From contig JBBFLA010000005.1 of the NCBI GenBank assembly GCA_037481795.1, positions 25,512-89,511 of the forward strand: a stretch of DNA of 64,000 bases, written 5' to 3'. Shown here in pieces: positions 8,146 through 64,000 of the stretch (positions are counted from its first letter, which is position 1; each line of letters opens with the position of its first letter). A model generated the notes under the pieces. It ran no database searches and had not been told where the DNA came from. It worked only from the letters and a program-made list of their open reading frames with translations. Position numbers and translations under genes: made by a program. This DNA comes from Spirochaetota bacterium (GTDB taxonomy: Bacteria; Spirochaetota; UBA4802; UB4802).

Positions 8146-10023
8146 ATGATTCCTGTTTTATTACGATTGAAAAATCCAAACAGTATTGATGACAGACAAC
8201 ATTTCCCAAGACCGGATTTACTTCGATTACCAACGTATAGTCTCAACGGTCAGTGGGTGATAGTGCCTGATAAAAAAAATCGTGGCAAAATGTTACAATG
8301 GTATACCAAGACCAATGTTCAAAAAATACTGCAGCAATGGTATAATATTGATGAATTTGAATCATATCCTGTTATTGTCCCTTTTCCGCTTGAATCTGAT
8401 AAAAATAGTGAATTTCATAAACAAAGTGGAATAACACCCAAACAGATTGTATTGCATAAGCGTTACTGGTATTTCTGCACATTTTCAATTGAAGACATTT
8501 CTACCGGGATACTTCATTTTGGCGCCTGTGATTATAAAGCTACAGTGTGGCTCAATGGTAAGCTTTTGGGGACACATGAGGGCGGATACACACCTTTTTC
8601 GTTTTTTACTCATTTTGAAGATACAAATTATTTAGCTGTACTGATTGAGGACAGCCTTTCACCTTCGCAGGTACGGGGTAAACAGACATTCCTTAATAAA
8701 CCCTTTATGGTTTGGTATACCAACATAACAGGTATATGGCAGGATGTCTGGGTTGAAAAGGTTGGGTCATCATATATCAGTTCAATTACATGCCAAAGAA
8801 CAGGAAGTAGTGTCCGCTTTGTTATTGATGTGGTAACCAGCGAAAATATTGCAAATGATTTCAGAATTGAATTGTTAATCTATGCATCACAGGTACATGG
8901 TAAAAAAAGTGCATTAAAAACACCTGTCAAGACATATCGTGATATTGTGATGTTTGATGTTTTTAAAAAAGGCCAGGTACTATTTGAGGTGCCCGAATCG
9001 CTTTTTACTACCTGGAGCCCTCAATATCCTGCACTCCATCCACTTCAGATAATCTTGAAAAAAGGGACAAAAGAGGCTGATTGTGTGTATAGTTATTTTG
9101 GTAGAAGGGATATTGAAATCAAAAATGGTTCTATTCTTTTAAATAAAAAAAATCTCTATCAGCGATTGCTGCTCAACCAGGGATATTATCCTGAAGGGCT
9201 ATACAGGCCTGTGAATAACTCTATGTACAAAACTGATATTGAGACCATGAAAAGTATGGGTTTTAATGGATGCCGTATTCATCAGAAGATAGAGGATCCA
9301 AAATTTTTATACTGGGCTGATCTTTTGGGATTTTTAGTATGGGAAGAAATGCCCAGTTACTATCTCCCATTACATAAAAACATGAAAAAACTCTATGCAC
9401 AGCTTCAGGAGGTTATGAAACGGGATTGTATGCACCCTTCAATAATTACGCTTGTGCTATACAATGAAAGCTGGGGGCTTTATTCCATGTTTTTTTCAAA
9501 AAGGGTGCGCGATAGTCTTATTGCACTGTTTACCAGGGTAAAAGCAGATTTTCCGGGATACATGGTGATAGATAACAGCGGATTTCATCATGTAAAAAGC
9601 GATATTGCCGATATACATCATTATCTGAAGCGATTTGAAGATATTGAAGAGTTTTATCGCAGGCTTGTTGCAGGTGTTCGCGAGGCACCACTGTGGGCAA
9701 ATTTTATATCCATGATTTTGGGCAAAGAAAATATTCAAACACCATATTTAAAAGGGTATGCTGATAAACAGGTACCGCTTTTAATAAGTGAAATGGGTGG
9801 TTTTGGTTTTGGCATGTATCAATCGGAGGCTAAAACCCTGGAAGAAAGTTTTCAGAAACATTGTGCCATACTGGCAAAGTTCCCTCAAATTCAGGGTTTT
9901 TGTTACACCCAGTTTACTGATACGTTTCAGGAAAAAAATGGAGTATGCACGTTTGACCGTACAATGAAAGCAAAACTTTTGCCCATCATGCAAAAAGCGC
10001 TTTCAAAACACATATTTTGGTAA
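8146..10023 (+). CDS. glycoside hydrolase family 2 protein
   Basis: GH2 sugar-binding block (GACDYKATVWLNGKLLGTHEGGYTPFSF), a TIM-barrel region with the acid/base motif YNESWG, and the nucleophile motif ISEMGG. Confidence 0.85.
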   Translation: MIPVLLRLKNPNSIDDRQHFPRPDLLRLPTYSLNGQWVIVPDKKNRGKMLQWYTKTNVQKILQQWYNIDEFESYPVIVPFPLESDKNSEFHKQSGITPKQIVLHKRYWYFCTFSIEDISTGILHFGACDYKATVWLNGKLLGTHEGGYTPFSFFTHFEDTNYLAVLIEDSLSPSQVRGKQTFLNKPFMVWYTNITGIWQDVWVEKVGSSYISSITCQRTGSSVRFVIDVVTSENIANDFRIELLIYASQVHGKKSALKTPVKTYRDIVMFDVFKKGQVLFEVPESLFTTWSPQYPALHPLQIILKKGTKEADCVYSYFGRRDIEIKNGSILLNKKNLYQRLLLNQGYYPEGLYRPVNNSMYKTDIETMKSMGFNGCRIHQKIEDPKFLYWADLLGFLVWEEMPSYYLPLHKNMKKLYAQLQEVMKRDCMHPSIITLVLYNESWGLYSMFFSKRVRDSLIALFTRVKADFPGYMVIDNSGFHHVKSDIADIHHYLKRFEDIEEFYRRLVAGVREAPLWANFISMILGKENIQTPYLKGYADKQVPLLISEMGGFGFGMYQSEAKTLEESFQKHCAILAKFPQIQGFCYTQFTDTFQEKNGVCTFDRTMKAKLLPIMQKALSKHIFW

Positions 10024-14647: not shown

Positions 14648-16272
14648 TTGTGCGACAGCTCTTCTAATATTCTTAAAATCTCGGGCAACAACTGTTTTTT
14701 ACGGGATAAAATGCCAGGAAGGTTGTACATATGTGGTCCACGAGGTGAAAAACTTAGCTTTTGTTCTCCAATAAAATCAGTTGAGAAAAGAATACTGTTT
14801 TGAGTTGTAATATCAGTTACCAGCAGGAGTGCCCAGTGAACATTTCTGCTTTGTGCGAAGTGGGAAAGAGCGTTTAGAAGGGATTCTTTGACACTTTCAA
14901 TATCATCAAGCGTAATAACCTCTACCTGCGATATGGCGACCGATATGCCATATTCCTGGTATATCTTGCAGTCATTGCTCACCGCATACATAGGGTCTAT
15001 AGTTTTAAGGCTTTCGGTAGATGAAAGAAGCTTCTTCCCATATTCTTCATAGTATATGCCTGCTATTGCTGACAGCTCTTCCAGTGCTTTTTTGTCAATT
15101 TGGGTGCTTGTAGGTGATAAAAGCATTGCAGTATCAGATAATATTCCGCTACATAAAAGCAATGCTATGTGAGGCTCTGGTTGAATGGCATTATATTTGT
15201 AAAGCTCATAAACCAGTGTACATGTGCTGCCTACTGGTTTAGAATACACAAATATTGGAGTAGTGGTTTTGATTGCTCCCAGGCGATGATGGTCAATGAT
15301 TTCAATGATATGTGCAGTCTCGGCACCTTCAACTGCCTGCGATAGTTCATTATGATCAACCAGTATCATTTTTTTTGCATATTGCTTAATGAGGTCAGAA
15401 CGGGTTATGATACCTGTGAGTTTACCATTGTCACATACAGGAAGTCCCCGATATTCGCTGTTTAATATTTTTTCTCGTGCCTGTTGCACAGTGCTATCAG
15501 GCAAAATAATATCTGACTTTTTCATGATGGAATGGCAGGGAATGCTTAAGGTAAGCAGGCGCAATGTATTGAATGTATCCAGTTGTGAAAGGTATACCCA
15601 GCCTGAATAGGTGGTGGTATCGTAATTAAAATCCTGAATACCGGTTACTATGATTGCAGCAAAATTATTCTTAATTGCAAATTCAATTATTGATTTTCGG
15701 TTCCCAACAATGAGTACAGTGTGATCAGGTTTGACGTTTTTTAACACATTAAGAGATTGGGCTGATTCCATTGCGCCAATAACAATATGGCCTTCAAATT
15801 CTTCATTTTGCCCCTTTTTAATGCAACGTCCGGGAATGGTAGTAATAAAATTCGCAGGCTTAAAGTAATAGAGTGGTTGAGCAGTGGAAGTAGCAGAAAA
15901 GTAAAACTCTGCCAGCTCTGCAAAGCTTACGATACCTTTATAGTAACTATCGCCACTAACAACAGGTATTATGCGCACACGGTCTTTTTCAATGTGTGTT
16001 ACTATGGAAAGCAGGGGATCGTCAGGATGCGCAGTTATGACATTGCGGGTCATTATATCGCTGACTTTAGGATATACATCTTTCAGCATTTCCGGTGGCT
16101 GGAGGTTAACCTCTTCAAAAACAAATCGTGTTTGCCTGTTTACATTGCCACAGCGGTATGCGGTGTATCGGTAATGAGGGTCAATGATGTTTTTCAGATG
16201 TGCATAGCAATATGCTGCACATATTGAATCAGTATCAGGATTTTTATGGCCAATGACAATAATCTCTTCCAT
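14644..16272 (-). CDS. CBS-domain family II (DHH/DHHA2) inorganic pyrophosphatase
   Basis: Has HKNPDTDSICAA, VDHNE and IIDHHRLG DHH motifs, with a CBS pair inserted between them and a DHHA2 C-terminus. Confidence 0.85.
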   Translation of the reverse strand: MEEIIVIGHKNPDTDSICAAYCYAHLKNIIDPHYRYTAYRCGNVNRQTRFVFEEVNLQPPEMLKDVYPKVSDIMTRNVITAHPDDPLLSIVTHIEKDRVRIIPVVSGDSYYKGIVSFAELAEFYFSATSTAQPLYYFKPANFITTIPGRCIKKGQNEEFEGHIVIGAMESAQSLNVLKNVKPDHTVLIVGNRKSIIEFAIKNNFAAIIVTGIQDFNYDTTTYSGWVYLSQLDTFNTLRLLTLSIPCHSIMKKSDIILPDSTVQQAREKILNSEYRGLPVCDNGKLTGIITRSDLIKQYAKKMILVDHNELSQAVEGAETAHIIEIIDHHRLGAIKTTTPIFVYSKPVGSTCTLVYELYKYNAIQPEPHIALLLCSGILSDTAMLLSPTSTQIDKKALEELSAIAGIYYEEYGKKLLSSTESLKTIDPMYAVSNDCKIYQEYGISVAISQVEVITLDDIESVKESLLNALSHFAQSRNVHWALLLVTDITTQNSILFSTDFIGEQKLSFSPRGPHMYNLPGILSRKKQLLPEILRILEELSHK

Positions 16273-54836: not shown

Positions 54837-57461
54837 TTACTTTACCGGTACATCTTCAGGCTTCACTAAAAGAAACTCAACGCGGCGGTTTCGTCTTCGG
54901 TTTTCAACGCTTGTGTTGGGTAAAAATGGTGATGTTTCTCCCATACCGCGTGATGATAAGCGCTTTTTATCAATGCCCTTTTTAACAAGATAATCCATAA
55001 CCGATTGAGCTCGCGCTTCAGAAAGCTTCAGGTTATACTGTTCCTCACCTATGTCGTCAGTATGCCCTTCAATCAAAACGTTGTACTTCTCGTATTTGTT
55101 CAATATCTCAGCAACTCTGTTTAAAATAGGGAATGCTTTCCCGGTTAATTTTGCACTGTCAAATGCAAATTCAATGTTACTGATGCGAATCTTTAATCCT
55201 CGTTCTGTCACCATGACCAGTACATCAATGGGTAACTTTATGCGTTTTGTCTTTGCAGAATTTCCGGTTATATCGATGGCCGATAATTCCATGAAGTAAT
55301 CCGCGGCAGATTCAACAAGCTCATTGTTTATCCCAATGCCATCCCACTTGAGCTCTGCAGGCGCTTCAGTGCCTTTGAATGTTTTAAATACATATCCAGC
55401 TGGTGCATAGATTACCAATTCCCAGCTTCTGATTCCAACATTATCGTTAAGAGTTGGGGTTATGGTGAGAATATCGTTTTCTCCATCACCATCAGGTGAG
55501 AAAAGCCCGGGTTCATAGGATAGATTGACATCAGGTGGAGTATTATCAATGGTAAAAGATTTTACGAATGACTGTGGGTTATTGCCACTTAAATATTCAG
55601 CACTAAATCTGTAGCGATAGATGCCATCATTTAGTTTTTTGCCTTTGTCTGTCATGCAATCCCAGGTAATTGTTTTTGGTATCACCTGGCCTTCAGTCTG
55701 ATATACAGGCTTATCCTTTTCATCAGTTACAACCAGTTGCCATTTAACAAGGTCTTTGGTGTCAGAGACTATAGGGGTAAATACTATAGTGTTGTGTAAT
55801 GCATGTGAAAAATATTCCCGTGATGCACTGATATCTACTGTCTGGTACTGGCGGGTTAAACTGATTTCACGGATTGTAGCCTGTGCTTTATTGCCCGCAT
55901 TGTCGGTGCATTGAATCTGATAGATATACAGTCCTTCAGGTACATCATTGCCAGCGTCATCTTTACCATCCCATACCAGTGTTTTGGGAATTTCAGCACC
56001 CTGAAACGTAAATTTTTTTACAATTTTCCCATCTTTATCTATAAACGTTGCATGCCATACATCATTACCTTGAGTCTTTATAGTTTGGATTATCTTTAAA
56101 GTATCCTTACGGCCATCATTGTTTGGTGAAAAGAATCGGTCTTCAACAGAGAGTTCAACAACAGGAGGAGTATTATCTATAGTAATAACCCCGCTCACCT
56201 CAGGTGATATGTTATCTCGCTCATCCCATGCCATAAATGCATATACATAGTCACCGTCTGGCAAAACATTTGCATTGGTATCGGTGCCATCCCAGAAAAT
56301 GGTTTCAGGAACCACGGCGGATTCCTTTGGAGTCCATATCTTCTGTATAAAACTTTTTACTGTCAGTGATTCTTCAACATCTCTATCGCTTACCCTGAAT
56401 TCTTTAACTACAGTTCCTGCATCATTTCTAATCTGTAATCGCCAACCACCAATCTTGCTTGCATCGCTCACACTTACATTAAACAGTACAAAATCCTGAA
56501 CTCCATCCGTATTGGGGGATATATATCGCTGGCTTGCGTTTACAGCAGTTTGTGGTGGCTCCTTATCTAACCTTCCATAGCGTACCTGTGTACCAACATA
56601 ATGGACAAAATCAGTCTTTTTATAATGTACCAGTGCATAATTAAATTCGGCCTGATATTCCTGCCCGGTGAGCCTGTAGCCAGCGCCTGCCGAAAAATCA
56701 GCATATTTGTACGGTCCAGGGGCCATAAAACCCAAACGAACAAAATAAGTATTTTTATAAACACCTTCGGCACCAACCTTTACTGCTATCTCATCATATT
56801 GTACTAAAGTATAATCATTAAGCAGGCTCACCTGGATATCATTTCTTTTATACAATGGGAGCGTATAGCCAGCAGTTACCTGATTCATGTCGGCAAAATC
56901 CCTGTCACTTCCCATTGGGAGCCCTGCATTAAGAGCAATACCAATGGTTGGGGAATACAAGCCAAAGCCTTTACCAATATCAACATTAAAAGCAGTTTGA
57001 TACATGCTGCCAAGAGTGATACCTGTAAAATATGCACCAGAGTCAGGTCCATTGCCTAACAAAAATGATAGCGATACACCCATGGAAAGCCGCCGTGTAA
57101 ATTCTTTGGCACCACCCACTGCAAACTGATAGCCATTGAGGGTGTCAGAGCCAGAGATCATCCTGAATGCACCTGCAATGACACCGTATGAGGTGGGAAA
57201 GCCTGCAACTACTGATGGATTATAGTAATCAAAAAGGAGATTGCCATAGTTAAATGAGCCAATAAAACGCTCTTCTTTTGCAATAGCTGCCGGGTTTATA
57301 AAGAAGGTGTCAGAGCCAGAGTAGGCAACACCGGTATCAGCTCTTCCAAACATGCTGGCACTGCCTCCAAGCAGCATCAGTGCAGTACCATCAGAAGCAG
57401 CATGTACTATGGTGTCAGAGCAAATAAATAGTATAGCAATGATAACAAAACGGATTTTCAC
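54837..57461 (-). CDS. large outer-membrane protein: N-terminal barrel-like region, four FlgD-Ig-like modules, C-terminal OmpA peptidoglycan-binding domain
   Basis: Signal peptide. Four repeats of FSPN.DG..D...W.L...D..G......WDG.D..G..VPDG.Y.Y...A.D.AGN...IDNTPP. The C-terminus FAFDSAKL...EGHTDDIGEEQYNLKLSEARAQSV...NRRVEF is an OmpA domain. Confidence 0.85.
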   Translation of the reverse strand: MKIRFVIIAILFICSDTIVHAASDGTALMLLGGSASMFGRADTGVAYSGSDTFFINPAAIAKEERFIGSFNYGNLLFDYYNPSVVAGFPTSYGVIAGAFRMISGSDTLNGYQFAVGGAKEFTRRLSMGVSLSFLLGNGPDSGAYFTGITLGSMYQTAFNVDIGKGFGLYSPTIGIALNAGLPMGSDRDFADMNQVTAGYTLPLYKRNDIQVSLLNDYTLVQYDEIAVKVGAEGVYKNTYFVRLGFMAPGPYKYADFSAGAGYRLTGQEYQAEFNYALVHYKKTDFVHYVGTQVRYGRLDKEPPQTAVNASQRYISPNTDGVQDFVLFNVSVSDASKIGGWRLQIRNDAGTVVKEFRVSDRDVEESLTVKSFIQKIWTPKESAVVPETIFWDGTDTNANVLPDGDYVYAFMAWDERDNISPEVSGVITIDNTPPVVELSVEDRFFSPNNDGRKDTLKIIQTIKTQGNDVWHATFIDKDGKIVKKFTFQGAEIPKTLVWDGKDDAGNDVPEGLYIYQIQCTDNAGNKAQATIREISLTRQYQTVDISASREYFSHALHNTIVFTPIVSDTKDLVKWQLVVTDEKDKPVYQTEGQVIPKTITWDCMTDKGKKLNDGIYRYRFSAEYLSGNNPQSFVKSFTIDNTPPDVNLSYEPGLFSPDGDGENDILTITPTLNDNVGIRSWELVIYAPAGYVFKTFKGTEAPAELKWDGIGINNELVESAADYFMELSAIDITGNSAKTKRIKLPIDVLVMVTERGLKIRISNIEFAFDSAKLTGKAFPILNRVAEILNKYEKYNVLIEGHTDDIGEEQYNLKLSEARAQSVMDYLVKKGIDKKRLSSRGMGETSPFLPNTSVENRRRNRRVEFLLVKPEDVPVK
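57141..57151 (+). repeat. GGTGTCAGAGC copy 1 (inside the OmpA-like gene, antisense to it)
   Basis: Exact 11-mer. The 16 nt GGTGTCAGAGCCAGAG are identical to copy 2. Confidence 0.95.
57306..57316 (+). repeat. GGTGTCAGAGC copy 2 (inside the OmpA-like gene)
   Basis: Exact 11-mer, followed by CAGAG as in copy 1. Confidence 0.95.
57411..57421 (+). repeat. GGTGTCAGAGC copy 3 (inside the OmpA-like gene, signal-peptide region)
   Basis: Exact 11-mer. Confidence 0.95.
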
Positions 57462-57654
57462 GATTATCCTCCTGTATAAGTGTGGAATTTTTATATTTTT
57501 TTTACATTCATTATACGCAAAATATTTTTTGTCAAGTGGTTATATTTTTACATAGGGGAATTGACAAAGGTCAAAATGATTAGTATTTTAGAATATACTT
57601 TATAAATGCTATTTAAGTGAGTATTAATAAACATTTTATCATGAGGATAGAACA

Positions 57655-58128
57655 ATGAAAGAAGATATTTTATTAAACAAACCTGCTCCCCAATTCAAGC
57701 TCCCTGATAAAGATAAACAGGTAGTAGAAAGCAATAATTTCAGAGGCAAGTGGGTAGTTGTTTATTTTTATCCCAAAGACAATACCCAAGGATGTACCCT
57801 GGAAGCTATCGATTTTACCAAAAGCATAAATGAATTTAAAGATTACAATGCTGTTGTTTTAGGCATTAGCCCCGATAGCCCTGAAAGCCATTGCAGATTT
57901 TATGATAAACATAACCTTAATCTGATTCTCTTGTCGGATACTGATCATACAGTGGCAAAAGCATACGGGGTATGGAAAAAAAAGAGCATGTATGGCAAAA
58001 ACTTTATGGGGATAGAGCGAAGTACATTCCTGATTGATCCTGAAGGCAGGGTCAGAGCAGTATGGCGAAAGGTTAAGGTGCCAGGGCATGTTGAAAAAGT
58101 ATTGCAAACGATCAAATCTTTACAGTAA
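57655..58128 (+). CDS. bcp: thiol peroxidase / peroxiredoxin Bcp
   Basis: The segment FYPKDNTQGCTLEA carries the peroxidatic Cys. AhpC/TSA fold length (157 aa). Confidence 0.9.
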   Translation: MKEDILLNKPAPQFKLPDKDKQVVESNNFRGKWVVVYFYPKDNTQGCTLEAIDFTKSINEFKDYNAVVLGISPDSPESHCRFYDKHNLNLILLSDTDHTVAKAYGVWKKKSMYGKNFMGIERSTFLIDPEGRVRAVWRKVKVPGHVEKVLQTIKSLQ

Positions 58129-58139
58129 AGGAGGTTGCC

Positions 58140-58697
58140 ATGAAATTGCAGGAAGCTATTGAGACAAGAAGAGCATACAGGTCACTTGCAACGGTAACAA
58201 TTAATGAAACAATGGTGTCAGAGCTTGCAAAAGCGGCCTCCCTTGCCCCATCGTGCTATAATAATCAGCCATGGAGGTTTGTATTTGTCTATGAATCGGG
58301 AAAACTTAACGAAGTAAAAAAAGCCCTGGCAAAGGGCAATGAATGGGCTCTTAAGGCTTCCATGATTATAGTGGTTTTCAGCAAGGAAAAGGATGATTGT
58401 ATCTTGAAAAATCGTATATATCATCAATTTGATACGGGAATGGCTACAGCACTTTTACTTCTTAAAGCAACTGAATTAGGTTTGGTGGCTCACCCCATAG
58501 CAGGGTATGATGAAGAGGCAGTTAAAAAAGCGTGCGCTATACCTGATGAGTTTACTGTAATTACCCTGATCATTGTTGGTAAAAAAGATGATGTAATACA
58601 TGATGATTTGAGCCAATGGCAAAAGGAAAGCGAAAAGAGCCGCCCACCACGAAAACCGTTACACGAATTTGCGTTTCATAATGTCTACGGTGGTTAA
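58140..58697 (+). CDS. nitroreductase-family protein
   Basis: Has RRAYRS, APS..N.QPW.F and HP..G motifs. 185 aa. Confidence 0.85.
   Translation: MKLQEAIETRRAYRSLATVTINETMVSELAKAASLAPSCYNNQPWRFVFVYESGKLNEVKKALAKGNEWALKASMIIVVFSKEKDDCILKNRIYHQFDTGMATALLLLKATELGLVAHPIAGYDEEAVKKACAIPDEFTVITLIIVGKKDDVIHDDLSQWQKESEKSRPPRKPLHEFAFHNVYGG
58214..58224 (+). repeat. GGTGTCAGAGC copy 4 (inside the nitroreductase gene, sense strand)
   Basis: Exact 11-mer, read as M-V-S-E-L (codons 25-29). Confidence 0.95.
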
Positions 58698-58707
58698 AGG
58701 TTTAAGG

Positions 58708-59280
58708 TCAGAGCCGCAATTCTCCCATCACAATTGCTTTGAAGCACTCAATGCATTCCTCAAGGCTATCACCCAGCTCTAAAAAATAATCATGATATGT
58801 TATTGTTATATGTGAGCGATAGTTACTGTCAAAATAAGCTTTAGATCCACCAAAGTAGCTTTCAAACGGGCTTTTTACCTTCCCTGCACGCACCGGATTG
58901 TTAGCAAAATACCAGATTAAATTAAGTAAATACATGCGTGGATTATCTGCAAATTCAACAATGGTATCTTTAAAGCGCTCATTCCACACAGGACCAGTTC
59001 GACCAGTTAATCTATTATACTTTTGTGCAAAACGCGATTTGATATACTGCACAATACGGGAGATGGTAGCCCCATCTGGCACAGTTGTAATAAGCAGGTG
59101 AATGTGATTATCCATAATCTGGTAGTTTATAAGTTTAAATGAGTATTTTTCCTGAGCGCGTATAAGATAATACTCAAGAATAGCTTTCATGGTATCATCC
59201 GACAATAAGTTTTTGCATTCTATAAGACGGCTTGTGACATGATAGGTTAAATTTGGAGCAATGATACGTAATTTACGCAT
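58708..59280 (-). CDS. REP-associated tyrosine transposase-like protein (RAYT; HUH/Y1, IS200-like fold)
   Basis: Has YHVTSR, the HUH motif MDNHIHLLI, GPVWNERF and the catalytic-Tyr motif WYFANNPVRAG. At 190 aa it is longer than IS200 TnpA. No IS ends or tnpB lie nearby. Confidence 0.78.
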   Translation of the reverse strand: MRKLRIIAPNLTYHVTSRLIECKNLLSDDTMKAILEYYLIRAQEKYSFKLINYQIMDNHIHLLITTVPDGATISRIVQYIKSRFAQKYNRLTGRTGPVWNERFKDTIVEFADNPRMYLLNLIWYFANNPVRAGKVKSPFESYFGGSKAYFDSNYRSHITITYHDYFLELGDSLEECIECFKAIVMGELRL

Positions 59281-59381
59281 GGTAATTTCCTCCCAAAGTA
59301 TAAGATTTTTATGGTGTGCTATATATACAAACGCTTGAGGACGAAAAATTGTAAAAAAAAAATTAAAATTTCGGAAAAAAA

Positions 59382-59716
59382 GGTGTCAGAGCCAGGGGAA
59401 GTAAGTGGGTGAGATGTGAGGGGTAAGGAGATGACATTGCTGGTGTCAGAGCTGGAAAGATGAAAGCATGAAAAGTAAGGTGTGAAGTGTAAATAGTTGG
59501 GAAGAGATGGATAAGGTGTCAGAGCTGCAACAATAGCAAGGTTTGAGGAGATTAAAAGATGATGTGATAGGGATTAATTATATTTCATTATCATAGAAAT
59601 CATGGTGTCAGAGCCAAAATTATATCACTGTGCTGGAGTTCGCAAAAATAAATGGATTAGCGAAACAAAATCAAAGTGCAGGACATAAGATTTTTAAATA
59701 ACCGTGGTGTCAGAGC
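59382..59716 (+). repeat. array of five direct GGTGTCAGAGC copies (copies 5-9) with non-repetitive spacers of 49, 62, 78 and 91 nt
   Basis: Exact copies start at 59382, 59442, 59515, 59604 and 59706. The array lies in the 5-prime flank of the RAYT gene. The first ~190 nt are G/A-rich and almost devoid of C on the + strand. Confidence 0.95.
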
Positions 59717-59771
59717 AAAAGATTTTCATAATTTCCTTGCACAATATAACTATTATTCATACGATGTATTC

Positions 59772-59999
59772 ATGGATGGGTTACTTTTGAACAGGCAACT
59801 TCTATTGCTAATTGTATTGGGAACTATATTTGGAATTTTTGCTGCAATAGCTGCATTTGTTAATGTCTATAATGGATACAGCCATTTCCCCAATATATCA
59901 AAAACTAAGCGGATACGCATATCTTTATCTATAGCGCTTGGTGCATTTATTATTATTCTTGCAATTACTATTATTTCTATGCTGGTTTTAAACAAGTAA
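59772..59999 (+). CDS. small two-TM membrane protein (75 aa from the ATG at 59772; the ORF track starts at the GTG at 59676)
   Basis: Two clear hydrophobic helices (LLLLIVLGTIFGIFAAIAAFV and ISLSIALGAFIIILAITIISMLVL). No RBS is evident. Confidence 0.4.
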   Translation: MDGLLLNRQLLLLIVLGTIFGIFAAIAAFVNVYNGYSHFPNISKTKRIRISLSIALGAFIIILAITIISMLVLNK

Positions 60000-60144
60000 A
60001 AAATGAAATTGATAACATACACCATAATCAAATTATTGACAATTTTTACACTTATTTTTTTGTTGAAAACACATGCAATAATGGATAAAATACTAGTATG
60101 TTATCCGGCGATGGAGTTCGCCGTAAACCGCTCTTAAAGAGCTG

Positions 60145-60185
60145 ATAACTCCTGTGGCAAATATATTACTATAACAGGAGGTTAT
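60145..60185 (+). promoter_or_regulatory. Shine-Dalgarno-sequestering hairpin in the leader of the dynamin-like gene
   Basis: ATAACTCCTGT (60145-60155) pairs with ACAGGAGGTTAT (60174-60185): 11 bp with a one-G bulge and an 18-nt loop. The 3-prime arm contains the AGGAGG SD, which ends 9 nt before the ATG at 60191. Confidence 0.55.
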
Positions 60186-60190
60186 TTTAT

Positions 60191-61999
60191 ATGAGCGGTA
60201 ACACCAACACCAATGTTTCACATCACAATAGCCATCAGTTGACACAATCTCTTTTAAGTTTAATTCAGCTTATTGAAAAAATGGGCAGTGAATATGAGCT
60301 CTATAAAATTAAACTTGAAGAGATAGCAACGCGTTATTCGCAGGGGAAAATCCATCTGGCAGTGTTGGGACAGTTTAAACGAGGGAAAAGCTCTTTGCTG
60401 AATGCTATACTGGGAGCCAGACTACTACCTACTGCTGTAATCCCTCTGACGTCAATTCCTACATACATACGATACAGTGATCGCCCGTATGTACATGTTA
60501 CCTTTGCGCACAATAAAGCAGGAGATACATTTGCCTCAGATAAGCCCGAAGAGCTGCAACAATTCCTTTCTATGTATGTTTCAGAAGAAGCTAATCCTAA
60601 CAATGCATTGCATGTTGAAAGTGTTGAATTTTATTATGATGCTGACATTTTGCTCAAAGGAGTAGTGCTTATTGACACTCCGGGAATAGGATCCACCCAT
60701 AAGCACAATACCGAGGCAACCCTCAATTTTTTACCACAATGTGATGCGGCGCTTTTCCTGATATCGGCCGACCCACCCATTACCGAGGTTGAGCTTGATT
60801 TTTTGCGTCAGGTAACTACCAAGGTTAATAAGATATTTTTCATACTTAATAAAATTGACTATCTTACTACAGATGAGTTGAATGAGGTACAGCAATTTAT
60901 ATCAAGAGTTATTCGGGAGAGAGCTAGTATAACTGAAGATTTGGCAATGTATCCGGTTTCAGCAAAGCATGGATTGCAGGCAAAATTAAGTAACGATGCC
61001 GTCTTGCTATCAAAAAGCAGATTAGATGTCCTTGAAAACCATATTGTTGATTTTATGTCAAAAAAGAAGGAAGCGGTTTTGCAAAAGAGCGTTCCCAGAA
61101 AAAGTCTTGATATTCTCTCTGATCTGGAATTGCAATTACAGCTTTCGCTAAAAGCGTACATGATGCCTCAGGAAGAATTACAACAAAAACTAATAGTATT
61201 TGACCACACCATACAGCAGGCAGAACAGCAGAAAACATTTTCTTCGGATATTCTGACGGGAGAGAGGAAACGGCTGCTTGAGCTATTGGAAGAGCAGGCA
61301 GAAAATTTGCGAAAGAAAGCCAGAAATTATTTAGAATCAGTTGCATACCGTAACCTATATGAAAATGGTACAGTAAATGAAGATGACATTACCAAAGCTT
61401 TAGCCGAAGCTATACCGGAATTTTTTGAGCGCGAGTTGGGAACAATGTCACAATTTTTTGACAACCATGTTGCACAGGTTATTGAAATGCATCAGAAACG
61501 TGCAAATGAGATAATAGACTCAGTGCGCAAAGCAGCTTCGGATTTATTTGATATTCCGTATATCCCTCATGCCCCAATCAGTGGTCTGGAAGTAACAAAA
61601 GAACCGTATTGGGTAATGCATCAATGGCGCTATTCGTTTATGGCAGTGCCTGAAGAGCTTGTTGACAAACTATTGCTAAAAAATGTTAGGATTAAACGTA
61701 TAAAGAAACGAATTGACCGGCAAATTCAAGCTCTGGTACTCAACAATGTAGAAAATTTGCGCTGGGCAACTGTGCAGAATCTGGATTCAACATTCCGTAC
61801 TATAATGCTGAGCATTGATGAACAGTTTGAACGGGTTATCACCATCACCCGTAAGGCAATTAATATTGCAGTTGAGCGGAAGCAATCATATAGCAAGGAA
61901 GTTGCAGACCAGATAGAGCATTTGAAACACTTAATTGCTGCATTGAGTGAGTACAAGAAGAATATAGCTTCATTCATCACGGATACTGTTTCGGTTTAA
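60191..61999 (+). CDS. bacterial dynamin-like GTPase
   Basis: G1 GQFKRGKSSLLNAILG, G3 LIDTPGIGS and G4 ILNKIDYL, followed by a long helical stalk region. Confidence 0.85.
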   Translation: MSGNTNTNVSHHNSHQLTQSLLSLIQLIEKMGSEYELYKIKLEEIATRYSQGKIHLAVLGQFKRGKSSLLNAILGARLLPTAVIPLTSIPTYIRYSDRPYVHVTFAHNKAGDTFASDKPEELQQFLSMYVSEEANPNNALHVESVEFYYDADILLKGVVLIDTPGIGSTHKHNTEATLNFLPQCDAALFLISADPPITEVELDFLRQVTTKVNKIFFILNKIDYLTTDELNEVQQFISRVIRERASITEDLAMYPVSAKHGLQAKLSNDAVLLSKSRLDVLENHIVDFMSKKKEAVLQKSVPRKSLDILSDLELQLQLSLKAYMMPQEELQQKLIVFDHTIQQAEQQKTFSSDILTGERKRLLELLEEQAENLRKKARNYLESVAYRNLYENGTVNEDDITKALAEAIPEFFERELGTMSQFFDNHVAQVIEMHQKRANEIIDSVRKAASDLFDIPYIPHAPISGLEVTKEPYWVMHQWRYSFMAVPEELVDKLLLKNVRIKRIKKRIDRQIQALVLNNVENLRWATVQNLDSTFRTIMLSIDEQFERVITITRKAINIAVERKQSYSKEVADQIEHLKHLIAALSEYKKNIASFITDTVSV

Positions 62000-62278
62000 C
62001 GAAAAATTTTTAAGCATTACTTTAAAGCGATAGTTCATCGTAAAAGGATTATTGTGATAATTTTTCCTCAAATGACATTGCATCAAAGGATACTGTATCG
62101 GCACCGCTTTTTTTTATAAGCTATTAGATAAGGCTAAATTATAGAATATCATGAACCCTGCTTTTTAAATATTACGTACTCACAAATGGTAATGCTGTCC
62201 TGCCATTGGGCACCCATTGTGTTAAATGCTCCCACATTTTGTAACGACATTAACACATGAATAAATATAATTTTTTTA

Positions 62279-62308
62279 TTGACAAATACAAATTAATATA
62301 TATATATT
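62279..62308 (+). promoter_or_regulatory. candidate sigma-70-type promoter for the acyl-CoA ligase gene
   Basis: TTGACA at 62279-62284, followed at 16-18 nt by TATATA/ATATAT/TATATT. It is 40 nt upstream of the TAGGAGA RBS. Confidence 0.35.
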
Positions 62309-62344
62309 ACAATATAATGATTATACAAATTAGGAGATTAATTT

Positions 62345-64000
62345 ATGAAATCACCATATGCTTCAAAACCATGGTTAAAACATTATGACAAGGATGTCCC
62401 GGCAACAATACAATACCACCAGACGCCATTGCATAAAATGCTTGAAAAAAGTGCATATGAATATCCTCACAACACTGCACTCATTTTTGAAGGTTACAAG
62501 GTAAATTATATTGAACTTTTATTTATGGTAAAAAAATTTGCAACTTTTCTCAGTTCAATTGGCGTCAAAAAGGGGGATGTGGTTGCTATCCTTTTGCCAA
62601 ATATGATTCAAACTGTAGTGGCATATTATGCCACTATAAGTATTGGTGGAATTGTTGCCATGTGTAACCCACTGTATAGTGACCGAGAGCTTGAATACCA
62701 GTTTAATGATTCAGGGGCAAAGGTTTTGGTATGTCTTGACCTTCTTGCAAACCGCATGATTAAGCTTCGCTCTGTCACCGGCATTGAGCACATCATTTAT
62801 GCTTCTATTGGTGACTATCTCCCATTTCCCAAAAATATTCTTTTTCCTCTTGTTGCCAGTAAAAACAACATGAAGGCCACGGTGTCTCCTGCATCAAATG
62901 TCTATCATTTTAAATATTGCATCAAGGTGTCAGAGCCCAATCCTCCAAAAGTAGATATTACCTTTGATGATGTGGTTGCCTACCAGTACACTGGCGGAAC
63001 AACGGGTGTATCAAAAGGAGCAATACTCACTCACCGCAATTTGGGGTGTATGGTGCAGATGTACGAAAAATGGTTTAATACCAATCGTGGTGAAGAAATA
63101 GCAATGGCTGCACCGCCAATATTTCATGTATTGGGGATGTCAGCTGCTATGAATTTGCCATTATATATGGGATGGACAATAGTTCTTATACCAAAACCAC
63201 AGCCGGAAAATCTGCTTAAAGCCATACGCTTGTACCGACCTACCATGTCACCGCTTGTACCAACAATGTATGTTGGCATGCTGCAACATCCTGATTTAAA
63301 GAAAACCGATATGACCTGCTTCAAGCTGTTAACATCAGGTGGTGCTTCATTGCCACTTGAAGTATTGCAGGAGTTTAAGAGGCTTACCGGTGTTGAGATT
63401 AATGAAGGCTTTGGCATGACCGAAACATCACCACAGACCCATCTCAACCCGTATAAGGGAAAGAAAAAACCGGGCAGCATTGGCATACCATATCCTGATA
63501 CTGAGGTTAAAATAGTAGATTTGGAAACAGGAACAAAAGAAGTGCCAATTGGTAAGCCAGGTGAGATGCTTTTCCGCGGCCCACAGGTAACCCAGGGGTA
63601 TCATAATAAACCTGAAGAAACCAAAAAGGCTTTTACTAAGGATGGATTTTTAAAATCTGGCGATATAGCTTATATGGATAAAGATGGGTACTTCTTTGTC
63701 GTTGACCGCAAGAAGGACCTCATTATTTCGGGTGGATACAATATATACCCGCGTGAAATTGAAGAAGTGCTGTATCAGCATGAAAGAGTTGCTAAATGCG
63801 CCGTTATAGGCATACCTGATGCAAAACGTGGGGAAAACGTTAAAGCGTTTGTTGTTTTAAAAGAGGGTATGAGTGCAACCCCTGATGAATTAATTGATTT
63901 CTGCAAAGAGCGTCTGGCTAAATATAAATGGCCTGTTGAAATTGAAATCAGAAAGAGCTTGCCCGAATCCAATGTTGGTAAGATTCTTAAAAAGGAATTA
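62345..64000 (+). CDS. long-chain-fatty-acid--CoA ligase (AMP-binding family), 3-prime end outside the window
   Basis: TAGGAGA RBS. The frame is open from 62345 to the window end, so the gene is absent from the ORF track. It has the AMP-binding motif YTGGTTGVSKGA, GFGMTE and GDIAYMDKDGYFFVVDRKKD. Confidence 0.9.
   Translation, partial: MKSPYASKPWLKHYDKDVPATIQYHQTPLHKMLEKSAYEYPHNTALIFEGYKVNYIELLFMVKKFATFLSSIGVKKGDVVAILLPNMIQTVVAYYATISIGGIVAMCNPLYSDRELEYQFNDSGAKVLVCLDLLANRMIKLRSVTGIEHIIYASIGDYLPFPKNILFPLVASKNNMKATVSPASNVYHFKYCIKVSEPNPPKVDITFDDVVAYQYTGGTTGVSKGAILTHRNLGCMVQMYEKWFNTNRGEEIAMAAPPIFHVLGMSAAMNLPLYMGWTIVLIPKPQPENLLKAIRLYRPTMSPLVPTMYVGMLQHPDLKKTDMTCFKLLTSGGASLPLEVLQEFKRLTGVEINEGFGMTETSPQTHLNPYKGKKKPGSIGIPYPDTEVKIVDLETGTKEVPIGKPGEMLFRGPQVTQGYHNKPEETKKAFTKDGFLKSGDIAYMDKDGYFFVVDRKKDLIISGGYNIYPREIEEVLYQHERVAKCAVIGIPDAKRGENVKAFVVLKEGMSATPDELIDFCKERLAKYKWPVEIEIRKSLPESNVGKILKKEL
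62926..62936 (+). repeat. GGTGTCAGAGC copy 10 (inside the acyl-CoA ligase gene, sense strand)
   Basis: Exact 11-mer, read as K-V-S-E-P (codons 194-198). Confidence 0.95.

Follow-up and report, generated by a model that had tools for sequence, protein, structure and literature searches.

RAYTs, the tyrosine transposases associated with repetitive extragenic palindromes (REPs), belong to the most widespread domesticated transposases; several subclasses are described as lacking an associated repeat, and we know of no established function for a RAYT. Here we analyzed a 64-kb stretch of a Spirochaetota contig (JBBFLA010000005.1; hereafter the window) in which the 11-mer GGTGTCAGAGC is clustered around a gene for a RAYT-type Y1 HUH nuclease. 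This short, linear and hairpin-less word is probably the cognate recognition or end word of the adjacent nuclease.

The closest described systems are the TIRtrons of Di Nocera, De Gregorio & Rocco (2013; PMC3733652), in which RAYT-like genes (TIRYTs) lie between inverted repeats that are not REPs. Many of these terminal inverted repeats (TIRs) share GGGGWSAS; they may overlap gene ends and occur singly, as dimers or in clusters (PMC3733652). The system described here resembles a TIRtron in combining a RAYT-like Y1 gene with a non-REP repeat that is clustered and overlaps the gene end, in the inverted termini of a related unit from the metagenome-assembled genome (MAG) DAOLVF, and in the presence of the exact 11-mer beside distant RAYT-like genes, one of which (L227) encodes a C-terminal stretch that appears by eye to be like a helix-turn-helix (HTH). 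GGGGWSAS is matched at 8/8 positions by the sister-clade word GGGGTCAG and at 7/8 by GGTGTCAG of the window. The system differs from TIRtrons in that the window copies are direct and 11 nt long, in contrast to the "long TIRs" of that paper, in that the protein has 190-200 residues and no C-terminal HTH, and in its unique-spacer arrays, gene-centred cloud of copies and constrained intragenic copies. Judged by these features, the system would best be filed as a TIRtron relative. PMC3733652 has no description of substitution-made copies inside genes, of a cloud that thins with distance or of synonymous constraint, and Spirochaetota RAYTs are not covered by Quentin et al. or Di Nocera et al. (PMC3733652). 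Because Quentin et al. and Bertels et al. detect repeats via hairpins or abundant 16-mers, such detection would miss GGTGTCAGAGC. In the literature the exact words were matched solely by unrelated primers. New here are the substitution origin, the synonymous constraint, a RAYT-free ortholog without copies and the unit-wise turnover of the array.

REPtrons (comparison set: Nunvar 2010; Bertels & Rainey 2011; Ton-Hoang 2012; Messing 2012, PDB 4ER8) share with this locus the fold and catalytic motifs and a gene that is bracketed by a co-evolving cognate repeat and often single and syntenic. In contrast to REPtrons, the word has no hairpin and no GT[AG]G head, is not extragenic-only, forms no inverted doublets and is not present in hundreds of dispersed copies in the window and control loci examined. 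A canonical REP or REPIN was rejected on the grounds that there is no 20-40-nt palindrome and no head, and that the copies are not confined to extragenic DNA. IS200/IS605 insertion sequences (IS608, ISDra2) likewise pair a Y1 HUH transposase with a short boundary word, and the RAYT unit is multi-copy in one MAG. The window locus differs in lacking subterminal hairpins and tnpB and in having Y-x3-NP where the insertion sequences have Y-x3-Q, and the sister-clade unit ends are inverted whereas those of the insertion sequences lie on the same strand; an IS200/IS605 identity was set aside for want of a hairpin, for the Y-x3-NP motif, for the lack of tnpB in the locus and because the locus is syntenic among relatives.

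Two further comparisons are offered as analogy only. Tn7 TnsB sites, Mu att sites and En/Spm 12-bp motifs are short protein-binding words that occur several times near element ends and are used by DDE enzymes on double-stranded DNA; the likeness lies in the several copies of one short word near element ends. DNA uptake words (USS/DUS) are similar in that exact copies are substituted into peptide-compatible coding sites, with the difference that they are genome-wide and the word considered here is centred on one gene.

The repeated word and its RAYT

An exact search for GGTGTCAGAGC on both strands of the window, with shuffled sequence (n = 100) as the expectation, returned ten matches, all on the + strand and all inside 57141-62936 (starts at 57141, 57306, 57411, 58214, 59382, 59442, 59515, 59604, 59706 and 62926), and none in the remaining 58 kb. 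The shuffles gave an expected count of 0.01, and ten was reached in 0/100 of them; the cluster is real and far beyond chance. The original prediction had reported ten exact co-oriented copies in this interval, and the same positions were recovered here. A one-mismatch search of the whole window adds only 55758(+) GGTGTCAGAGA and 62769(-) GGTGACAGAGC, positions 1-55757 contain zero matches even with one mismatch allowed, and all copies with at most one mismatch are confined to 7.2 kb. Conservation among the ten copies ends about 1 nt outside the word, with nothing shared in the 40 nt on either side. The copies and the RAYT gene are arranged as follows.

55758-55768, + strand: OmpA-like copy GGTGTCAGAGA with one mismatch, at a distance of 3 kb from the RAYT gene; the corresponding site in L002 reads AGTGTCAGAGA
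57141-57151, + strand (gene on - strand): OmpA-like copy, read G-S-D-T; exact in orthologs L002, L255 and L290
57306-57316, + strand: OmpA-like copy, read G-S-D-T; exact in L002, L178, L255 and L290
57411-57421, + strand: OmpA-like signal-peptide copy, read C-S-D-T; orthologs have the recurrent variant GGTGACAGAGC there
58049-58058, + strand: bcp variant GGGTCAGAGC, read R-V-R-A; kept in 5 orthologs, GTGTCAGAGC in L013
58214-58224, + strand: nitroreductase copy, read V-S-E; exact in 4 orthologs, lost in L013
58706-58715, + strand: degenerate copy GGTCAGAGCC over the RAYT stop codon, the downstream flanking copy of the RAYT gene
58708-59280, - strand: RAYT-type Y1 HUH nuclease gene, 190 residues (Pfam Y1_Tnp)
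59281-59381, - strand: A/T-rich RAYT upstream region with the conserved block caagcgttt[gr]tatata ... gggaggaaat ATG (9 loci compared)
59382-59716, + strand: five exact copies in an intergenic array; the spacers, each unique, measure 49-91 nt, and the starts are 60, 73, 89 and 102 nt apart
62769-62779, - strand: inverted GGTGACAGAGC in the acyl-CoA ligase gene (from the one-mismatch search)
62926-62936, + strand: acyl-CoA ligase copy, read K-V-S-E-P; exact in 8/11 orthologs, GGTGTCAAAGC in 3

Five of the ten exact copies lie inside open reading frames (ORFs), three in the OmpA-like gene and one each in the nitroreductase and acyl-CoA ligase genes, and the other five form the intergenic array upstream of the RAYT gene, a distribution over intergenic DNA and unrelated genes that had been claimed from the sequence alone. 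The coding copies are read as S-D-T (all three OmpA-like copies) or V-S-E (nitroreductase and acyl-CoA ligase) and use three different reading frames, while the intergenic copies are equally exact; counting variants, five exact copies and three variants lie inside Pfam-supported genes. The array is divergent from the RAYT gene in an intergenic stretch of 400 bp, its closest copy about 100 nt from the RAYT ATG, and the conserved block between them is presumed from its sequence to hold the RAYT promoter and ribosome-binding site. A consensus promoter and terminator scan of 58600-60200 gave matches no more numerous than in shuffles.

The previously noted degenerate copies (GGGTCAGAGC at 58049-58058, GGTCAGAGCC at 58706-58715 and the inverted copy at 62769-62779) are all present, and the positions of the first two are conserved in orthologous loci. 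GGTCAGAGCC supplies the RAYT stop, its TCA being TGA on the - strand and CTC TGA encoding the final Leu and stop; the orthologous site reads GGGTCAGAGC in L002, L178, L181, L233, L255 and L290. The variant GGTGACAGAGC also recurs, in the arrays of L003 and L009 and at the OmpA site of orthologs.

The word is not accompanied by a hairpin. DNA folds of the ten copies with 25-nt flanks gave z-scores of -1.6 to +1.4 and no common structure, an inverted-repeat search found none that involves a copy, and a GT[AG]G or CGTC head is absent from the word and its flanks, in agreement with the earlier statement that no conserved hairpin lies beside the copies.

The 190-residue protein matches Pfam Y1_Tnp with 47.7 bits (cutoff 23, E = 2e-12) and NCBIfam REP_Tyr_transpos with 71.8 bits, under that model's cutoff of 80, with only 37.8 bits for the IS200 model. 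An alignment of 26 homologs shows an HUH motif, NHIH, with H59 and H61 invariant, and a catalytic tyrosine motif, YFANNP (Y-x3-NP), with Y124, N128 and P129 invariant. A profile search matches PDB 4ER8, E. coli TnpA_REP (E = 3.9e-5), and the AlphaFold2 (AF2) model (pLDDT 93.3) has 4ER8 as its top Foldseek PDB match (E = 6e-8, TM 0.61/0.70), followed by IS200/IS605 TnpAs. The Pfam match, the catalytic motifs, the profile match to 4ER8 and the predicted structure identify the protein as a RAYT-fold HUH enzyme. Its only domain is Y1_Tnp, and a double-stranded-DNA-binding module is not recognizable. TnpA_Y1 proteins of subclass 2.1 (Quentin 2018) are about 238 residues long and carry an HTH-like domain at the C-terminus together with YIELNP or Y[IV]HLNP, in contrast to the 190 residues, YFANNP and lack of an HTH seen here; the signature is closest to subclasses 2.4/2.6 of Quentin et al., unlike HTH-bearing 2.1.

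RAYT homologs, clade words and multiplied units

A search with the RAYT protein against 185,579 species genomes yielded 8 loci, all in Spirochaetota MAGs and with 49-74% identity, and a profile-based scan enlarged the homolog set to 81 RAYT loci from Spirochaetota genomes. All 8 close loci (comparison loci carry L numbers) have at least two word copies within 1.5 kb. The exact 11-mer is clustered at the RAYT in 6/8 of them, L006 has the one-base variant GGTGTCAGAGT, and the most distant, L008, has GGGTCAGAGCA instead. Across the enlarged set, at least two copies of the same word or of a clade variant lie within 1.5 kb at 81/81 loci, and at least three at 79/81; no gene besides the RAYT is common to the 81 loci. 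Only L002 among the close loci shares the neighbours of the window, and on one side only; the others have unrelated neighbours, such as mfd, a B12-binding radical-SAM gene and an arginyl-tRNA-protein transferase gene, and copies lie inside these too. Each close locus carries 2-6 copies within the 100-450 bp upstream of the RAYT start, with the nearest upstream copy 70-140 nt from the ATG and an A/T-rich tract next to it.

The consensus word differs between RAYT clades: GGTGTCAGAGC in the window clade, and AGGGGTCAGAGCCTTA, GGGGTCAGAGCAA, GG[GT]GTCAGAGTAAAA, GGCTCAGAGCC, GGTGCCAGAGTAAAA and TCCTCAGAGTAAAT in others. Position 3 is the main difference between clade words (T or G), position 11 also varies (C or T), and paralogs in one MAG carry distinct variants (L101 vs L108, L122 vs L129). 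Only the clade-12 variant is self-complementary (GGCT-CAG-AGCC); because the other variants break the pairing, structure is not the conserved feature. In these comparisons the word co-varies with the RAYT clade and travels with the RAYT into unrelated neighbourhoods. The original prediction had left the choice between a non-canonical RAYT-associated repeat and something else; with the word or a clade variant at every homolog locus and the variants following the RAYT clade, the comparisons strongly support the former.

Pooled over the loci, copies reach a density of 4.3/kb over the first 500 bp on the upstream side of the RAYT and 2.5/kb over the same distance on its downstream side; the density falls to 0.3-0.9/kb at 0.5-2.5 kb and to about 0.1/kb beyond 3 kb (chance, about 0.01/kb), and reaches background by about 3-4 kb from the gene. 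Control DNA of about 100 kb, consisting of window 1-55 kb and loci L010, L071, L075 and L171 from MAGs carrying clade-1 RAYTs (this related-genome part being about 45 kb), held one copy. With respect to REP-like dispersal, 55.7 kb of the window held no copy and the related-genome controls a single one, and RAYT-distant arrays exist in some genomes: L162, a higher-GC relative, has arrays at 669-862 and 8346-8599 with six GGGGTCAGAGCA copies and 25-30-nt spacers, 2-5 kb from the RAYT and with no second RAYT in the locus.

A metagenome scan by the doubled word alone recovered low-GC contigs in which RAYT homologs 85-92% identical lie beside an array. It also brought up eight contigs of other taxonomic origin, on which copies of the exact 11-mer lie next to distant RAYT-like genes (31-35% identity, 217-313 residues, NHYH/NHFH, and YIYxNP-, YIEANP- or YIHLNP-type motifs). 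The latter contigs, which include L196, L192, L213/L251, L227, L231 and L252, differ in GC content. The word family appears to be older and wider than Spirochaetota. About 100/120 doubled-word hits were without any RAYT homolog, many of them periodic tandem repeats in high-GC DNA. Periodic repeats containing GGTGTCAGAGC on contigs with no RAYT include L174 (25 copies, 28-bp period), L209/L249 (56-bp) and L172/L208 (42-bp); such repeats are probably unrelated and include the word by coincidence.

Sister clades show the word at the ends of a multiplied unit. MAG DAOLVF (AMR_MDS_4586) has four RAYT copies (L100, L106, L112 and L114; 91-94% DNA identity) with unrelated flanks; the homology of the four runs exactly from GCTCTGACCCC, about 135 nt before the ATG, to GGGGTCAGAGC, about 12 nt past the stop codon. 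The word is here the perfect 11-bp inverted terminus of a unit of about 760 bp, multiplied to at least four copies. This unit behaves like an insertion sequence, with a Y1 transposase and TIRs; a clear target-site duplication was not seen. Inverted bracketing of the RAYT was found in sister clades 2, 13 and 14, while in the window, L002 and L003 the copies on the two sides of the gene point the same way (direct).

Orthologous arrays contain 3-8 copies, and their spacers are mostly unrelated although the flanking proteins are about 90% identical. Within the close pair L290 vs L255, five [word + spacer] units bounded by copies are present in one genome only, and one 28-nt unit is present in the second, a pattern which indicates that array turnover proceeds by gain and loss of complete [motif + spacer] units. 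In L002 the syntenic block is interrupted at the array, and the segment with the dynamin-like GTPase gene (Dyn) and the acyl-CoA ligase gene (ACS) lies 580 kb away with no array or RAYT beside it; in L013 (1000-1400) a deletion has taken out the N-terminal part of the RAYT along with the array and the Dyn region, and GGGTCAGAGC lies inside the junction of about 75 nt. Taken together, the exact unit ends, the whole-unit turnover and the deletions ending at copies suggest that DNA is broken and joined at the word.

Copies within genes and the surrounding locus

Alignment with orthologs shows that the coding copies arose by substitution and not by insertion. No coding site has a gap between the window and L002, and an insertion footprint or in-frame REP insertion was rejected since orthologs are indel-free at 6/7 sites of the radical-SAM gene beside the L003 RAYT and at the ACS, nitroreductase (NTR), bcp and OmpA sites. 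At the ACS site, for example, K-V-S-E-P in the clade corresponds to K-N-Y-D-P, A-N-F-S-P or similar peptides of equal length in orthologs of at most 72% identity. The radical-SAM gene carries seven copies, at sites where the ortholog peptides (GSDT, ALTP, VRA, ALTL, CSDT) are compatible or nearly so. Its L171 ortholog, with no RAYT within 5 kb, has 0/7 copies; the L170 ortholog, with no RAYT and one solo intergenic copy, has two clear copies, in sites 1 and 4, with site 2 holding a variant similar to GGTGACAGAG; and the L169 ortholog, at 68% overall nucleotide identity, has 6/7 sites exact or variant and one extra variant-like match. L169 is a short contig, and a RAYT is absent from the 300 nt upstream. 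Ortholog differences within the radical-SAM words fall mostly at positions 3 and 5.

Constraint was examined by Fisher test on alignments of OmpA, bcp, NTR and ACS orthologs, each of 5-11 sequences. Third codon positions were invariant at 19/23 sites inside copies vs 300/1175 outside (p = 2.4e-8), and when only codons with an invariant amino acid were counted the values were 16/17 vs 247/884 (p = 2.5e-8). This third-position invariance indicates that the coding copies are maintained at the DNA level, through constraint on synonymous sites. In L013, where the RAYT is decayed, the NTR copy is lost, with 5/11 bases changed; with L170, this case suggests that copies may decay once the RAYT has gone.

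The other features of the locus are listed below.

54837-57461, - strand: OmpA-like gene
57655-58128, + strand: bcp
58140-58697, + strand: NTR
Between the intergenic stretch and the fluoride riboswitch: small membrane ORF
60098-60161, + strand: fluoride riboswitch RF01734, 58.7 bits
60191-61999, + strand: Dyn
62345 to window end, + strand: ACS

The gene order OmpA-bcp-NTR-RAYT-array-Dyn-ACS is shared with at least 4 other assemblies (L178, L255, L290 and one side of L002). Because this order is syntenic in relatives, the window locus looks resident, or domesticated, rather than recently mobile. No gene of the locus evolves faster than the RAYT: its protein is 76-77% identical to the RAYTs at the orthologous position in L178, L255 and L290, against 82-93% for the OmpA, bcp, NTR and ACS proteins on its flanks; this divergence suggests either rapid evolution or replacement by a paralog. 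The only Rfam families in the window are tRNA and the fluoride riboswitch, leaving the array uncovered. The riboswitch lies directly upstream of Dyn, which is syntenic in relatives; to our knowledge a dynamin-like GTPase is unusual as a fluoride-regulated gene.

Rival readings and significance

In the reading that we favour, the RAYT would recognize the word on single-stranded DNA and cut and rejoin there, as known HUH Y1 chemistry suggests, and the word would fill the role that REPs have for classical RAYTs and TIRs for TIRYTs. The gene is bracketed by the array upstream and the stop-codon copy downstream, and two inverted copies are the unit ends in sister clades. Recombination or slippage between copies would add or remove [word + spacer] units and at times delete or rearrange neighbouring DNA. 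The action of the enzyme, or its benefit, would be greatest near the gene and so give a cloud of copies within about 3-4 kb, neighbouring genes included; coding copies originate as point substitutions where the peptide tolerates the word and are retained afterwards at the DNA level. The sequences themselves show the association, the co-variation, the unit-end role, the decay with distance, the substitution origin and the synonymous constraint; that the RAYT binds and cleaves the word, on which strand it would do so and why copies build up locally are inferences.

Several points weigh against this reading. Known RAYT and IS200/IS605 enzymes require a hairpin, and there is none at the window copies; we know of no mechanism by which a Y1 nuclease would make copies by substitution. 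The proposed contact between RAYT and word comes from sequence comparison, and since the flanking copies of the window are direct, the picture of an insertion-sequence-like unit drawn from sister clades may not apply here. The distal copies are co-oriented in 162/205 cases vs 136 expected, a non-random orientation that is nevertheless unlinked to local GC skew; a replication-strand cause was rejected for lack of such a correlation (rho = -0.17, p = 0.31; measured over about 12 kb, skew serves only as a weak proxy). The check by RAYT-free orthologs that had been proposed gave a divided answer: L171 is without copies, which favours the link, and against it L010 keeps its ACS copy without a nearby RAYT and L169 keeps seven variant copies without an adjacent one. 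Because L010 and L169 retain copies in this way, RAYT proximity favours copies and is not strictly needed for their retention.

The word could instead be a double-stranded operator or sink site for the RAYT near its own gene, with the copies serving as no substrate for cutting and joining; in the sink form the host would select nearby extra sites that occupy a potentially genotoxic nuclease. The consistent position of the array about 70-140 nt upstream of the RAYT start, the decay of density with distance from the gene, the substitution origin and purifying constraint of the coding copies, as selected binding sites would show, and a window locus that is syntenic, single and unlike an insertion sequence all fit this proposal. 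We nonetheless regard it as unlikely, given a protein that consists of a Y1 HUH domain alone with no recognizable double-stranded-DNA-binding module, a word that forms the exact termini of the multiplied sister-clade unit, whole-unit changes of arrays and deletions that end at copies. The two models are not mutually exclusive. A different host or element protein might bind the word, as an iteron, a centromere-like site or a recombinase site, and the RAYTs merely sit beside it. Short direct repeats with irregular spacers do resemble iteron or partition-site clusters, and the tie between RAYT and word is drawn from comparing sequences, yet no other gene is common to the 81 loci and the variants track RAYT phylogeny even among paralogs of the same genome, which a single host factor cannot explain; we give this possibility little credence. 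Plasmid iterons and a parC-type centromere were themselves rejected for the irregular spacing, the unique spacers and the absence of a Rep or Par gene at the locus.

There is next to no chance that the cluster reflects a genome-wide skewed word (an uptake sequence, Chi or KOPS) or a by-product of codon usage or repeated peptides. Coding copies in several frames, as in uptake sequences, and the existence of another dispersed 11-mer in the genome, GTAACTATCGC, could be cited for it; they are outweighed by the lack of any copy across 55.7 kb of the window, with just one across about 45 kb of controls, by the use of three frames and by intergenic copies as exact as the coding ones. Uptake sequences, Chi and KOPS were also rejected on the confinement of the copies to 7.2 kb of the window, and the original prediction, which argued against a genome-wide skewed word, is borne out by the absence of copies from 1-55757 and the single copy in the related-genome controls. 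The second word, often followed by C, occurs at 15943(+), 35661(-), 46491(-), 47024(+), 49486(-), 53709(+) and 58816(-). With 9 one-mismatch sites at 3303-48370 there are 16 sites at up to one mismatch vs 0.54 expected, spread over the window on both strands, mostly in genes, in several frames, and in one case inside the RAYT gene. GTAACTATCGC is also found in the close relatives L001-L003, L009-L011, L013 and L116, among which it is conserved within one array spacer unit, and is absent from L004-L008. It looks like a genome-wide word, either similar to an uptake sequence or another element's repeat, and a link to the RAYT was set apart since it is evenly spread.

Returning to GGTGTCAGAGC as the cognate word of the RAYT, the build-up of coding copies fits two readings, selected cis-acting sites (sink, operator or landing pad) or local molecular drive. 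A bolder and only tentative proposal, which we think less likely to be right than wrong, is that the RAYT imposes, or the host selects, a distance-dependent cloud of an 11-nt word over the genes within a few kb, overwriting synonymous and tolerant sites. If true, this would be a gene-centred local drive or cis-acting sink, comparable to uptake-sequence accumulation focused on one locus, and a hairpin-independent Y1 HUH enzyme would shape the coding sequence of its neighbours.

For annotators, exact repeated 11-mers in conserved genes can signal a mobile or domesticated element rather than a protein motif. For the RAYT family, the locus and about 80 relatives offer a clean pairing of a small enzyme with a short word, in which positions 3 and 11 supply natural variants of specificity; this opens to test how a Y1 HUH enzyme could read DNA without a hairpin, whether its sites act in cis and why they are preserved inside genes. 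The locus would gain in importance if the imposition of the word on nearby coding DNA turned out to be active.

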